The notes under the pieces: model-generated | What the model was told of the DNA's origin: nothing | What the model saw: only the letters and a program-made list of their open reading frames with translations | Database searches by the model: none | IMG/VR virus record: IMGVR_UViG_2513237098_000002 | Location: 8,147-72,146 of that record | Strand: one strand, 5' to 3' | DNA from: a virus | Taxonomy: Duplodnaviria > Caudoviricetes | Length of the DNA: 64,000 nt | Position numbers and translations under genes: made by a program | In this document: piece by piece, positions 15,835 through 19,920 of the stretch | How the letters are laid out: every line of letters begins with the position of its first letter | Position numbering within the stretch: the stretch's first letter is position 1

Positions 15835-16260
15835 TTGCCGATTTTGCAATGGCGTTGCGCGCATGGTGAGGCTCCAGCTGTCACGCTTCCGTGCGCCGCG
15901 ACGGTCGCCATTGCGCCGCACGACGACAGCGTCGATAGCAACGTCGTCCTCATCACCGGCAAAGGCACCATCGAGTCCTTCGGCGACGGGCCGCATATCA
16001 TCAAGCGGGTCCTCTTCGAGCCCGGCATCACGCTGAAGCATTCGGCTCAGCTGCAGCTACTGAGCTGCACCGACCGCGAGATCTCCACCGCGGCAGTCGG
16101 TTGGTATGCCTGCGATGGCGCCGGCCACTGGCATGAAGTCCATTTTAGCGCGACCGGTGCGGCCGAGCTGACGCGCCGGCTCGAGGTCATCCTGCGCCGT
16201 TTCGACGAGATCGAGGCGCGGCTAGAGCGGCTGGAGCAACGCAGCGATGTCGACCATTGA
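15835..16260 (+). CDS. Stand-alone tail-fibre-like beta module with C-terminal coiled coil
   Basis: VLITGKGTIESFG...ITLKHS...GHW resembles a module of alphaproteobacterial fibres; TTG start. Confidence 0.45.
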   Translation: MPILQWRCAHGEAPAVTLPCAATVAIAPHDDSVDSNVVLITGKGTIESFGDGPHIIKRVLFEPGITLKHSAQLQLLSCTDREISTAAVGWYACDGAGHWHEVHFSATGAAELTRRLEVILRRFDEIEARLERLEQRSDVDH

Positions 16261-19200
16261 GCGGCAACGTGCGGCGTTGCGGCGTGAACGGTGGATGCAG
16301 ACCAGCGCGCATTCGCTTCGCCTGCTCGGCCGGCTTTATACGCGCGACTTCGATCCGAGCCAGCCGCGCGACGAGCACGGCCGCTGGGTCGATGCCGGCG
16401 GCAGCGATGGCGGCGGTGCGGCGCCCGTGATCGACACCGCCAAGGTCGAGGCCAAGACCCAGAGCAACGTCACCGCGGCCAGTGCCAAGGCGCTCGCCAA
16501 CGGCGTTGAACCATTGCCGGGCAGCAAGGGCGAGCATCCCAACACGATCGGCTCCCGGCAACCGACGGCGAAGGGCGCCAAGCTGGCCTACGGCCAACCC
16601 GACGTCGCGTCGATGAAGCTCGACCCGAAGCGCTACGCCCACGACATCGCGCTGCTCGGCAACGCCGACTTCTATCCGAACTTCCGCGCCAAAGAGATGG
16701 CCGGTTCGACCGATGCCGCAACCCGCGCCGCGGTCGAGCACATGAAGGACAATCTGAAATTCCTGTACAGCTTCGCCGATAAGTCGACCCAGGTCTGGTA
16801 CGACGGCGCCCGCGCCCTGGTCGACGACCGCGCCAAGCTCTGGGGCTTCAACGACGCCAGCGTTGCCGGGGTCTATGCCGCGCTGTCGCCGACCAAGGAC
16901 TGGGATCAGAACGTCCACATCGCGGACATGCTGATGAAGACCTACAAGACCCAGCAGGGCCACCGCTGGGACGACGCGATGGAGGAACAGGCGAAGACGC
17001 TGTGGTCGGACAAGAACCAGGCCGTGGTCGACCTGGTGCGCGGCAAGACCCTCGGCGAACTGACGAGCCCGGCCGAGAAGGCGCTCTGGATCCGGACCTA
17101 CGACGAGACCCACAACTCGACCGACTACCGCACCGTGCTGCCGAACGGCGCGCTCGGCGCCATCGTACGCAACAAGGACGGCAGCAACGCCAAGGTGGTC
17201 TGGCAGTCCCTGGCCTCGATCACTAACGCGGTGAAGGCGCTGGAGGCCAATGGCGATACCGCGACGATCTCGGCGGCGATGGGGACCGCGCACAAGGTGC
17301 GGTCGTTCTACAACAACATTCTTGATCCGCATTCCGCCAATGGTGACGTCACCATCGACACCCATGCGGTTGGCGCCGCGCTGCTGCGTTCGCTCAGCAA
17401 CAAGACAGTGCCGGTGCTGCACAATTTCGGCCTGGCGCCCGACAAGGCCGACAAGCCGGAGGGCTGGGAAGCCGCCGGCTCATCGGTCAAGACCGGCTTA
17501 AGCGGGCTTTATCCGGTTTATGCGGAGGCCTACCGCGAGGCCGCCAAAGAGCTGGGGATTCAGCCGCGTCAATTGCAATCGGCGGTGTGGGTGGTAAAAC
17601 GCGAGGCCTTCGGCAACCTTAGCAAAAAGCAGATTGCCGCCGTCGAGGACGCCTGGCGCGCCTATCACGACGATCCGAAGGTGACGCTCGAGGCGACGCA
17701 AGCGACGATCGCCGAGCTGGCTGGATTGAGGAAGCATGAACGACACGACCCAGAACGACATCATCAAGCTATTGAAGGAAGCCGGCGTCCCGGTGACCCG
17801 CGAGAATTACATCAATCTGAATTGGGGCGAGCCGCTGCCCGAGTGGACGGCGGAGCTGGAAATGGAATTGCCGAAAGAATTGCAGGACTGGTCGCTGTTC
17901 GAGACGCGCGACGGCGAGCTGCAGCTGAAGAAGTAGCGCAGGCGGAGCGCGCCCGCCGCTGGAGGCAGCTGCGGCAGAAGTGGGACGAAAGCCAGCACCC
18001 GCGCGATCCCGCCGGCACTTCGACCGGCGGTCAGTTCACCTCAAGCGGTGGCGGTAGCAGCAGCGGTGAAGCCGCCGCCGCGGTCCCGGTCGACGCCGAA
18101 GTCGTCAACGTCGGCGGCGATAAATGGAATCAGGAAATTGCCAAGGAGCTGGAGCGCGAGTATCAGGCGGCGCGCCCCGAGCTTGAGGAATTGGCGGCAG
18201 GGGCGGTTGGCGAATCCACCGTAACCGACGCGGATGAAGACGAGGAAGATCCGCCCTACGTCCCGGAAGAATGGGATTCGCTCTCGGGCGATGACCAGGA
18301 AGAGGCCGCGCAGGAATACAAGAGCAAGAACTACGACGACTACCTGCAGAGCGAGAGCGATAATTGGTACAGCGAGTATGCGCCCGACGATGCCCGGGTC
18401 TTGGTCGCGGAAAATTACAACGACGGCACCACGACTGACTGGGTGAGCGAAACGCTCGATGATCTGCGCAGCGACCGCAAGGCCGATGGGCTGCCGGACT
18501 TTCCGTTCACCGATCAGCAGATGATGGATGCGCTGACGATTGACTACGAAGCCTATGGCGGCGGCTCGACCAACGATCCGGAATTTTCCTGGGATGACGA
18601 CAAGCTGACGGCGCCGGCCGGCTACGATCCGGCACAGCAGACATTGCCTGGCGTCGAGCCGCTGAAGCCGGAAGATTATCTGACGCCGAAGATGCGCGAC
18701 GAGATCGAGAAGGCGCTCGCGGCGGAGTTCAACAAGCAGGGCGACGATCTCGCCGGCAAGATGGATCCGCCGGATTACCTCGGCGACAGCGCCAATGAAT
18801 TCCTCGAGGAGTCCTGGAATTCGATGCAAGATTCGGAAAAGTTCGCCTGGCTCGAGAGCAACACCAACATCCTCGAAAAATACCAGGAAGCCGCCGAGAC
18901 AGCGGACGCGCCGCAGGAGCTGGTGGTCGAAGCGCTGCCGAGCAAATTCGATCCGTTGCAGCAGAACGCCAGCGCCGAGCAGTATCAGCGCACCCAGGCT
19001 TTAGCGCGCTATCTCTCCGCCGAACGTGCCGTGCAGGTGCTGGAAGATCGCAAGTTGCCGGTGCCGAGCCGGCAAGCGCTGGCCAATATCGACAGTCAAT
19101 TGTGGGGCGCCTGGAAGAGCAGCTCCACCTCCAAAAACGGCATGCTGCTGCAGGTCGCGACCGCCGATGAGCTGGAGGGCCGGCTCAATGCCAAGACCGC

Positions 19201-19696
19201 GACCGAGATCAACCGCGATGAGATGAAACGCTACGCCGATCAGTATTATGCGAACATCGGCGGCTACAACGGCGTTAAGGCCTACGTGCGCGCGAAATGG
19301 GAAGTGACGCAATATCTGCTCGACAAGGGCGGCATCAAAACCCTGCAGCTCTATCGTGGCATTCGGTTGCCGCCCGATGTGATTGCGAAACGGTTCAAGC
19401 ATCTGCCGGCCGGCCGCCAGATCGAGGGCCACACTTTGATGCCGACTTTGGAGGTGGTGCGCAACGGTGCCGCCTCGACGTCGCTCAATGCCGGTGTCTC
19501 TAACGGTTGGGGCAATAGCGACAACCGGATCGTGTTGCGATTGGAAGTGCCGCGCACCGCAGCGCTGTCGGTGCCGGCCTACGGCATCAACGTCCATAGC
19601 GAGCGCGAGGTGGTGGTCGCCGGCACCGCCTGGAAGGGCTGGGATGCCTGGAAAGACACGGCCCCAGAATTTCATAAGGTACCGTTGGCGGCATAG
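16247..19696 (+). CDS. 1149-aa polyvalent effector: module 1 glycosylase-fold-like domain, module 2 R-S-E ADP-ribosyltransferase
   Basis: Two [WF]DxxQxPRDxxG motifs; DVTIDTHA and YREAAKELGIQPRQLQSAVW; LYRG, STS, EREVVV. Confidence 0.7.
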   Translation: MSTIERQRAALRRERWMQTSAHSLRLLGRLYTRDFDPSQPRDEHGRWVDAGGSDGGGAAPVIDTAKVEAKTQSNVTAASAKALANGVEPLPGSKGEHPNTIGSRQPTAKGAKLAYGQPDVASMKLDPKRYAHDIALLGNADFYPNFRAKEMAGSTDAATRAAVEHMKDNLKFLYSFADKSTQVWYDGARALVDDRAKLWGFNDASVAGVYAALSPTKDWDQNVHIADMLMKTYKTQQGHRWDDAMEEQAKTLWSDKNQAVVDLVRGKTLGELTSPAEKALWIRTYDETHNSTDYRTVLPNGALGAIVRNKDGSNAKVVWQSLASITNAVKALEANGDTATISAAMGTAHKVRSFYNNILDPHSANGDVTIDTHAVGAALLRSLSNKTVPVLHNFGLAPDKADKPEGWEAAGSSVKTGLSGLYPVYAEAYREAAKELGIQPRQLQSAVWVVKREAFGNLSKKQIAAVEDAWRAYHDDPKVTLEATQATIAELAGLRKHERHDPERHHQAIEGSRRPGDPRELHQSELGRAAARVDGGAGNGIAERIAGLVAVRDARRRAAAEEVAQAERARRWRQLRQKWDESQHPRDPAGTSTGGQFTSSGGGSSSGEAAAAVPVDAEVVNVGGDKWNQEIAKELEREYQAARPELEELAAGAVGESTVTDADEDEEDPPYVPEEWDSLSGDDQEEAAQEYKSKNYDDYLQSESDNWYSEYAPDDARVLVAENYNDGTTTDWVSETLDDLRSDRKADGLPDFPFTDQQMMDALTIDYEAYGGGSTNDPEFSWDDDKLTAPAGYDPAQQTLPGVEPLKPEDYLTPKMRDEIEKALAAEFNKQGDDLAGKMDPPDYLGDSANEFLEESWNSMQDSEKFAWLESNTNILEKYQEAAETADAPQELVVEALPSKFDPLQQNASAEQYQRTQALARYLSAERAVQVLEDRKLPVPSRQALANIDSQLWGAWKSSSTSKNGMLLQVATADELEGRLNAKTATEINRDEMKRYADQYYANIGGYNGVKAYVRAKWEVTQYLLDKGGIKTLQLYRGIRLPPDVIAKRFKHLPAGRQIEGHTLMPTLEVVRNGAASTSLNAGVSNGWGNSDNRIVLRLEVPRTAALSVPAYGINVHSEREVVVAGTAWKGWDAWKDTAPEFHKVPLAA
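17736..17936 (+). CDS. 66-aa gene nested out of frame inside the 1149-aa ORF (putative immunity/partner)
   Basis: GAGGA RBS; protein-like sequence while the host frame over the same bases reads like shadow sequence. Confidence 0.7.
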   Translation: MNDTTQNDIIKLLKEAGVPVTRENYINLNWGEPLPEWTAELEMELPKELQDWSLFETRDGELQLKK

Positions 19697-19698
19697 CG

Positions 19699-19920
19699 AT
19701 GGCCAACAAGCCCGAGCCCTACAAGATCGACATTGTGCTGATGGAGCTGCAGCAGCATCTGCCGCACTGGCTCGACCCCAAGGAACGCTATCCGGAAAAG
19801 TTCGACGCGATCCGCGACAAGCATCGCGAGCGCTGGATTGCTGAGCAGCAAGCCAGGGGCAAGAAGGCAAAGCGCGCCAAGCGCTTCCGAGACCTCAAGC
19901 GAAAATTTCTCGCGCGCTGA
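19699..19920 (+). CDS. 73-aa putative immunity/partner of the ART module
   Basis: Starts 2 nt after the ART stop. Confidence 0.6.
   Translation: MANKPEPYKIDIVLMELQQHLPHWLDPKERYPEKFDAIRDKHRERWIAEQQARGKKAKRAKRFRDLKRKFLAR

Follow-up and report, generated by a model that had tools for sequence, protein, structure and literature searches.

Phage proteins that are injected with the DNA act before phage gene expression and are a main source of anti-defense and host-takeover enzymes. T4 Alt is a virion-packaged, protease-processed ADP-ribosyltransferase (ART) of the R-S-E type. Ugi and p56 are small acidic phage inhibitors of uracil-DNA glycosylase, and in the lambda Rz/Rz1 spanin pair one gene lies wholly embedded in the +1 frame of the other. 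Polyvalent proteins are known from phages and conjugative elements (Iyer, Burroughs, Anand, de Souza, and Aravind, 2017; PMC5512222); in the passages searched, they are described as single polypeptides that carry multiple unrelated effector domains, ARTs among them, and that undergo domain shuffling, and as lying beside head and packaging genes, with packaging and delivery alongside the DNA proposed. In the MuF polymorphic toxins of temperate phages, a constant head-associated N-terminal domain is followed by a variable C-terminal toxin (an ART in 14% of cases) and by a short open reading frame (ORF) directly downstream, for which immunity was proposed (Jamet et al., 2017; PMC5576092). Here, a locus with features of all these systems is analyzed. 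It lies in a 64,000-nucleotide (nt) stretch of a tailed-phage genome (the window; positions 8,147 to 72,146 of IMG/VR record IMGVR_UViG_2513237098_000002). An earlier note, made from the letters alone, had described it as a capsid-packaged array of two effectors, each with an immunity partner, fused by read-through across a nested gene.

The locus is built on a single uninterrupted frame of 1149 residues (16247..19696, + strand), which encodes a polyvalent head-region protein. Each of its two units is led by a basic lead-in, a delimiter motif, and a Gly-rich linker. Unit 1 is the Pfam domain DUF7178, and unit 2 consists of an acidic domain and a C-terminal domain with a conserved Arg, Ser-Thr-Ser, and Glu-x-Glu. 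Inspection of the ORF and its translation recovered both lead motifs where they had been reported, FDPSQPRDEHGRW ahead of unit 1 and WDESQHPRDPAG..GGQF (residues 579-597; 17981-18037) ahead of unit 2, together with the shorter signatures DVTIDTHA (367-374), LYRG (1035-1038), STS (1077-1079), and SEREV, which holds the ExE (1118-1122). The closest full-length relative (1141 residues, 87% identical; locus L001) belongs to a syntenic prophage of Bradyrhizobium sp. BRP22. Between residues 534 and 648 the long frame holds no ATG, GTG, or TTG, in agreement with the remark that module 2 has no obvious start. Because unit 2 lacks a start codon of its own and evolves as coding sequence, it can be made only via read-through from unit 1, and both modules indeed lie in one ORF across the nested gene. 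Independent assemblies from five sources (NCBI, JGI, Logan, ENA, and IMG/VR) share the same frames and flanking stops, and an artifact or a set of compensating indels is therefore ruled out.

The junction of about 200 nt between the two units is dual-coding. Its primary codon signal is that of the embedded +1-frame gene, and the long frame over the same nucleotides is a stop-free, low-complexity linker. This genome is rich in GC, so that the frame in use can be told from third codon positions. The GC content at third positions (GC3) of the long frame is 0.86 in module 1, drops to 0.30 precisely over 17736-17936, and is again 0.86 afterward; the nested frame has a GC3 of 0.87 over this span. 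Substitutions relative to the BRP22 ortholog follow the same course. Counted by long-frame codon position, module 1 has 22/20/82, the acidic domain 26/32/80, and the ART domain 17/8/44; the nested span has 12/10/3, equivalent to 10/3/12 by nested-frame position. As the earlier note had remarked, the long frame looks shadow-like at the junction. The nested ORF itself was found as described, out of frame and with its own GAGGA, located 3 nt upstream of the ATG. Its peptide was conserved at every locus inspected, with 65-79% identity where the DUF7178 domains are 63-89% identical, and in this identity range at least nine embedded loci keep both ATG and stop. In most embedded loci the nested frame is closed by a stop ∼2-6 codons before the ATG. 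By these sequence signatures the nested 66-residue ORF looks like a real gene. A search for its peptide in 401 genomes of the same family found it only in the window's own genome, and an ESM Atlas search gave no usable lead. At locus L003 (4640-4642) the nested ORF contains a premature stop 9 codons before the usual end, which the near-identical L016 does not have; the stop reflects a recent mutation or else a sequencing error.

At least 587 IMG/VR loci encode DUF7178. In 80 of them (37-89% identity), the region 3′ of the domain was searched with a hidden Markov model of the small peptide, which was detected within ∼190 nt of the DUF7178 end in 77. Relative to DUF7178, the peptide was in the +1 frame in 67 loci, in the +2 frame in 10, and in-frame in none. 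It trails DUF7178 irrespective of the element that comes next, whether a motif-acidic-ART protein, other modules, the protease-capsid protein, or nothing. Because the peptide is present after the domain in 77 of 80 loci and never in its frame, the small acidic protein is, as judged by its distribution, an obligate and separately translated companion of DUF7178. A peptide of the nested type also forms the in-frame N-terminus of a motif-acidic-ART protein in L007/L008, L061, and L065, and likewise in P0043 and P0052. In 37 of 70 non-redundant loci the small ORF is fully embedded, with the DUF7178 ORF extending beyond its end. In another 27 the DUF7178 ORF ends at or ahead of the small domain and the two genes share 15-60 nt, and in 3 the DUF7178 stop falls within the small ORF. 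Viewed across this range, the window locus is the extreme state of a general gene pair, in which read-through of DUF7178 extends into a second cargo. The simulated chance of a stop-free long frame over the nested span was 0.12-0.40 per locus, an ascertainment-biased figure that is no proof of selection for an open long frame, because the long proteins were found through that open frame.

Two other explanations of the nested ORF bear on this survey. It could be an untranslated relic, the former 5′ part of a separate gene that is still readable since the fusion is recent, as the weak Shine-Dalgarno (SD) sequence in most embedded loci and the premature stop in L003 would suggest. However, the GC3 signal resides in the nested frame, the substitution pattern favors that frame, and ATG and stop persist both in the nine or more embedded loci mentioned above and in 37 embedded loci of the larger survey; L016, all but identical to L003, has no premature stop. 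A relic is consequently regarded as improbable. Programmed frameshifting could instead join the frames, either by a +1 shift into the nested frame at the DUF7178 end or by a −1 shift out of it before the TAG at 17934. Such a shift would suit the +1 position of the small ORF in 67 of 77 loci and the DUF7178 stop at the start of the small domain in several loci, yet a conserved slippery site was not found, an ATG always heads the small ORF, and a stop shortly upstream of that ATG closes the nested frame in most embedded loci. In L003, moreover, the stop precedes any 3′ shift site, and we give frameshifting very little credence.

A second small ORF behind the ART domain, also reported in the earlier note, was confirmed at 19699-19920. 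This ORF73 has an own-frame GC3 of 0.80 and an 89% identical ortholog in BRP22. Its N-terminal ∼45 residues are conserved and its tail is basic; the terminal basic segment resembles the lead-in helix of motif 2 and fits the lead-ins in L011, L028, and L042. Of 71 non-redundant ART loci, 50 have an ORF73-like homolog whose start lies 0-50 nt past the ART stop, as a separate ORF in 48 cases. Twenty-six of the 50 are short stand-alone genes, and the other 24 run on in frame into another motif-led module or an MPxP-protease-capsid protein. No ORF73-like peptide was detected behind the different C-terminal module of L003. The view of ORF73 as a simple stand-alone immunity gene was downgraded, as it is the leader of the next protein in about half of the loci. 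In L095 (5053-5931) and L096 (1499-2317), the ORF behind the ART module opens with an ORF73-like leader and then carries a different domain with an R...S...E-like pattern (FWRGTR, SSSS, ENEV). Locus L062 (2330-7585) encodes one ORF of 1750 residues in which an acidic-ART unit is joined in frame to an ORF73-like peptide and to five or more additional modules delimited by the motif.

When the 1149-residue protein and five sub-regions were searched against Pfam, DUF7178 was the only match among the effector regions; a literature search found no paper naming this domain. An AlphaFold2 (AF2) model of DUF7178, built from a 37-sequence alignment, had a mean predicted local distance difference test (pLDDT) score of 87.9. 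In an exhaustive VIA-align comparison with 48,161 chains, every chain in ranks 1-22 was either QNG1 or an HhH-GPD glycosylase (Z 8.8-4.9, with 155-222 residues aligned), and the unrelated chains that came next had Z ≤4.2; in helical proteins, VIA-align Z values below 13 call for caution. The matches included QNG1/DUF2419 (Z 8.8 and 8.0) and Thermotoga Ogg (8.6), and further top chains were EndoIII, AGOG, Mag1, MagIII, OGG1, MutY, ROS1, and AlkA. Foldseek comparison of the model with the PDB returned noise only, and a phmmer search of PDB sequences with residues 1-499 gave no match. The 37 sequences have ∼60 invariant columns overall, among them H349, K350, R352, D371, T372, and H373. In the AF2 model the His-Lys-x-Arg element (H349, K350, R352) opens a helix behind a short turn, and Asp-Thr-His (D371-H373) caps the next helix, with D371 21 residues past K350. 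The Nth protein of the window's own genome separates its Lys and Asp by 18 residues (GRKTANVV...VDTH). From the predicted fold we infer that unit 1 may be an HhH-GPD-type N-glycosylase-like enzyme or a DNA binder. The Ogg/HhH-type fold suggested in the earlier note for module 1 is therefore supported at the level of the predicted structure and the reading of the motifs, and not at that of sequence or profile matches.

The last 250 residues of the long protein belong to a family of 386 representative clusters. Pfam gave no hit for this domain at E values up to 5, nor for any of 41 family members; a phmmer search of PDB sequences with the domain yielded no match, nor did PDB profile searches with alignments A1 and A3. 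The AF2 model of the domain has a pLDDT of 92.7. In Foldseek, the top 16 rows were all ARTs, as were nearly all of the ∼40 matches listed (best E 3e-3), with cholera toxin A1, C2-I, Vis, LT, HopU1, Scabin, and ExoS as the best matches. VIA-align aligned 141-166 residues with C2-I, iota Ia, Certhrax, Vis, CDTa, ExoS, ART2.2, and C3 (Z 5.0-6.2; root-mean-square deviation 4.2-5.0). Across 41 sequences R1037 and S1077 never vary, and E1119 and E1121 reach at least 90% conservation (R138, S178, E220, and E222 in domain numbering). These residues map to strands 133-141, 176-180, and 222-226 of the model, spaced by 40 residues from R to S and 42 from S to E, and the strand positions of R, STS, and ExE agree with those of the R-S-E class. 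The R-S-E signature that had been read at the end of module 2 is thus matched by an ART-like predicted fold and by conserved residues, and unit 2 is, on the strength of the model, presumably an R-S-E ART dependent on nicotinamide adenine dinucleotide (NAD+). The acidic middle domain accompanies the ART domain in more than 40 relatives. It has 76 Asp or Glu among 291 residues and a net charge of −57, in the range of DNA-mimic anti-restriction proteins, and occurs without the ART domain in P0003-P0005. Searches with the acidic domain in ESM Atlas gave no usable lead. PADLOC found nothing at the locus.

The delimiter motif, [FWY]D[PE]xx(H)PRDxxG[RK][WF] followed by a T[DE]GGG-type linker, has 95 occurrences among 257 related proteins, 62 of which carry it, invariably at module borders and in up to five copies per protein. 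No paper naming it was found in a literature search. It could be a cleavage site, a capsid-targeting signal, or a recombination joint. Relatives without module 2 share the DUF7178 half and carry Zeta_toxin, ADPrib_exo_Tox, ATLF, ART-PolyVal, NUDIX, or Acb1 domains; the locus is polymorphic, as had been proposed, with C-terminal modules exchanged behind DUF7178. In other relatives DUF7178 is attached to the portal C-terminus (PF06381/PF04860) or to the protease-capsid N-terminus (PF04586/PF05065). Because of these fusions to portal or protease-capsid proteins, capsid packaging of the long protein is strongly suggested by domain architecture. At L007 (4739-8500), a protein of 1253 residues unites a prohead protease and a capsid protein with domains of FAD/pyridine-nucleotide oxidoreductases.

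Taken together, we moderately favor the reading that the locus encodes a polyvalent, probably virion-packaged effector of a temperate phage. Late in infection the 1149-residue fusion would be made, and the two small partners would be made from their own starts. The fusion would enter the procapsid, perhaps be cut at the delimiter motifs, and pass into the next cell alongside the phage DNA. There, the ART would act on host proteins or nucleic acids and the glycosylase-like module on DNA or nucleotides, with the effect of modifying host nucleic acid, nucleotides, or proteins, or of blunting defense. Packaging into virions, cutting, delivery into the cell, partner binding, and the activity of both enzymes are inferred. 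The embedded gene and ORF73 would encode cognate partners, each binding the module just upstream and either keeping it inactive in the producer cell in the manner of an immunity protein or docking it to the next head component. An immunity role is plausible for both small ORFs, which are tightly linked to the module upstream (77 of 80 and 50 of 71 loci), as immunity genes would be. Inhibition has about an even chance of being the partner role and docking a clearly smaller one, the remainder falling to other roles.

Several observations weigh against this reading. Fusion of the small ORFs as leaders to downstream proteins is unusual for immunity proteins. The SD sequence before the nested ATG is strong only in this window and weak in most embedded loci, and loci found through the small peptide comprise ∼5 open and 3 closed long frames. 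Neither DUF7178 nor the ART-like domain matches its presumed Pfam family, with no match of DUF7178 to PF00730 and none of the ART-like domain to a curated ART family such as PF03496 (ADPrib_exo_Tox) in the Pfam searches. Alignment of the DUF7178 profile with the genome's Nth and with a 25-sequence Nth alignment by hhalign gave probabilities below 1%; because profile comparisons are without signal, the link between DUF7178 and glycosylases is confined to the fold match and the reading of the motifs. Values of Z <9 for the largely helical module 1 can reflect common arrangements, and the middling VIA-align Z of the ART domain (∼6) may likewise reflect a common fold arrangement.

The leader position of the small peptides is no less compatible with docking or an adaptor function than with immunity. 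They could be docking adaptors rather than inhibitors, each binding the preceding enzyme module and chaining the cargo non-covalently to the procapsid interior; in this window, covalent read-through would replace the first link, and the free 66-residue protein would be a chaperone or cap. Such a role would account for the 24 of 50 loci in which the ORF73-like peptide runs in frame into the next module or the MPxP-protease-capsid protein, for the cases named above in which a nested-type peptide begins a motif-acidic-ART protein, and for the same delimiter motif behind each peptide whenever the ORF continues. If docking were the sole function, the nested gene would be redundant wherever a covalent fusion already links DUF7178 to the next element, yet in such loci it retains its ATG, its stop, and its conserved residues, and we see docking without inhibition as a possibility that is unlikely rather than negligible. 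DUF7178 might also be a non-enzymatic, MuF-like structural head protein whose HhH-type fold binds the DNA end or the portal and which carries the ART effector. HhH folds bind DNA non-specifically, portal-DUF7178 fusions are present in relatives, and a constant N-terminal part with varying C-terminal domains recalls MuF in the MuF polymorphic toxins (PMC5576092). A Pfam match to MuF was not found, however, and a purely structural role fits less well with ∼60 invariant columns, including His-Lys-x-Arg and Asp-Thr-His whose placement may match that of the Lys and Asp of HhH-GPD enzymes, or with an obligate small acidic partner, which suggests an activity in need of control; we are doubtful of it. 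An equally doubtful extension of the effector reading is that the locus belongs to a general plug-in system by which enzymes are loaded into phage heads. Each cargo module would then be bound by a small peptide encoded right behind it, and the peptide would be free, embedded, or N-terminal on the next cargo or on the protease-capsid protein, so that cargo is daisy-chained to the procapsid interior. The ubiquitous [FWY]D[PE]xxPRDxxG[RK][WF]-Gly-rich element would serve as the signal for prohead-protease cleavage or capsid targeting through which the enzymes are released for ejection, and DUF7178 would be the first HhH-GPD-type N-glycosylase to be delivered from a virion, under the control of a Ugi-like acidic partner.

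The features of the locus and of the surrounding head module are collected in Table 1.

Table 1. Coordinates of the long ORF's parts, the two small genes, and neighboring head genes in the window
Feature	Coordinates	Strand	Remarks
TerS	10462-10947		
TerL	10950-12542		
GH25 endolysin	14250-15044		
N-terminal lead-in, basic (aa 1-33)	16247..16345	+	similar lead-ins ahead of the motif in many relatives
Delimiter motif 1, FDPSQPRDEHGRW (aa 34-46)	16346..16384	+	Gly-rich linker next
Module 1, DUF7178 (aa ∼126-496)	16622..17734	+	Pfam PF23802, E 1e-24 to 1e-26
Candidate catalytic pair of DUF7178	K350 17294-17296; D371 17357-17359	+	
Dual-coded linker of the long protein (aa 497-563)	17735..17935	+	R/A/G-rich, A/T-ending codons, stop-free
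Embedded gene, 66 aa, acidic (net charge −7)	17736..17936	+	+1 frame relative to the long ORF
Lead-in helix ERARRWRQLRQK and delimiter motif 2 (WDESQHPRD...GGQF)	17936..18037	+	followed by Gly/Ser-rich linker
Acidic middle domain of module 2 (aa 609-899)	18071..18943	+	net charge −57
R-S-E ADP-ribosyltransferase-like domain (aa 900-1149)	18944..19693	+	R1037 19355-19357; S1077 19475-19477; E1119/E1121 19601-19609
ORF73, 73 aa, small gene behind ART domain	19699..19920	+	begins 2 nt past the long-ORF stop
Prohead protease (S78) fused to HK97-type major capsid protein	19985..22222	+	
TIG-domain protein	22260-22775		
Portal protein	23074..24489	+	PF04860, E 1e-64

The genes around the long ORF form a tailed-phage head module, and the protease-capsid gene lies directly downstream of the locus, as had been noted. 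The genome bearing the window is 9.9 Mb in size, and the host of the temperate phage is most likely a Bradyrhizobium. The order of the head module (10462-24489) is unusual, with TerS and TerL followed by small genes, the GH25 endolysin, two unknown genes, the polyprotein, the protease-capsid gene, the TIG protein, and the portal last; the BRP22 prophage (L001) has an identical order of head genes. The protease-capsid protein begins with a conserved MP(I/M)xPxKxE...F/W-M-x-R-C-V-P-E-M segment (19985-20060), which is also found at L009, L010, L015, L019, L020, L025, and L036. Among relatives, DUF7178 (P0010, P0011) or an ORF73-like leader precedes this start in one continuous frame, giving cargo-protease-capsid polyproteins. 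Beyond the portal, an ORF of 586 residues (24236-25996) contains ∼20 collagen triple-helix repeats (PF01391, E 4e-53); it lies in the most GC-rich stretch of the window (0.70) and, as listed, overlaps the portal 3′ end by ∼250 nt.

With a candidate Lys/Asp pair, DUF7178, a widespread and uncharacterized head-associated domain, gains a fold-based hypothesis. Gene callers skip the overlapping or embedded small acidic gene, which leaves standard annotations incomplete. The Pfam-less R-S-E ART-like family of 386 clusters, with its own conserved follower peptide, would be a new ART family, and the delimiter motif may act as the signal for cleavage, targeting, or recombination behind the modularity of the cargo arrays. 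Should the partners prove to be inhibitors or docking adaptors, they would provide handles to load chosen enzymes into capsids and to find new effectors.

Compared with the systems introduced at the outset, the locus resembles polyvalent proteins in joining DUF7178, acidic, and ART domains in one ORF, in its shuffled relatives, and in its head and packaging neighbors. It differs in its R-S-E ART, the typical ART of polyvalent proteins being of the H-Y-D ART-PolyVal type, and in its glycosylase-like domain, DUF7178, delimiter motif, and embedded partners, which the passages searched in that account do not mention (PMC5512222). As in MuF toxins (PMC5576092), a variable C-terminal toxin domain is followed by a small ORF in a prophage context. 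However, the 1149-residue protein has no Pfam hit to the MuF domain (PF04233/PF06152), the portal gene is not adjacent and lies 3.4 kb downstream behind the capsid gene, two enzyme units stand in series, and one partner gene is located inside the toxin ORF rather than after it. Like toxin-immunity pairs, the small genes lie directly behind the toxin domain and co-vary with it (77 of 80 DUF7178 and 50 of 71 ART loci). The R-S-E signature, the late structural gene setting, and presumed injection with the DNA are shared with T4 Alt, to which there is no detectable sequence similarity; the ART here is the tail of a 1149-residue fusion, behind a very acidic domain of 290 residues. HhH-GPD glycosylases (EndoIII/Nth, Ogg, AGOG, MagIII, AlkA, and MutY) and QNG1/DUF2419 are alike in predicted fold, and the invariant Lys on the helix after a short hairpin, with an invariant Asp 21 residues on (18 in the genome's Nth), may correspond to their Lys and Asp. 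In contrast to them, DUF7178 is without sequence or profile similarity, has extra N- and C-terminal helices, and lies in a phage head context with an obligate small partner gene. Analogous to Rz/Rz1, a complete small ORF with its own start occupies the +1 frame of a longer ORF and both appear functional, but the enclosing frame here is merely a linker between two enzyme modules, and sister phages overlap the pair by 15-60 nt or fuse the small gene downstream. With Ugi and p56 the locus shares the pairing of a small acidic phage protein with a glycosylase-type enzyme; whereas Ugi targets a host enzyme of another fold, the candidate target of the partner here is the phage's own enzyme.

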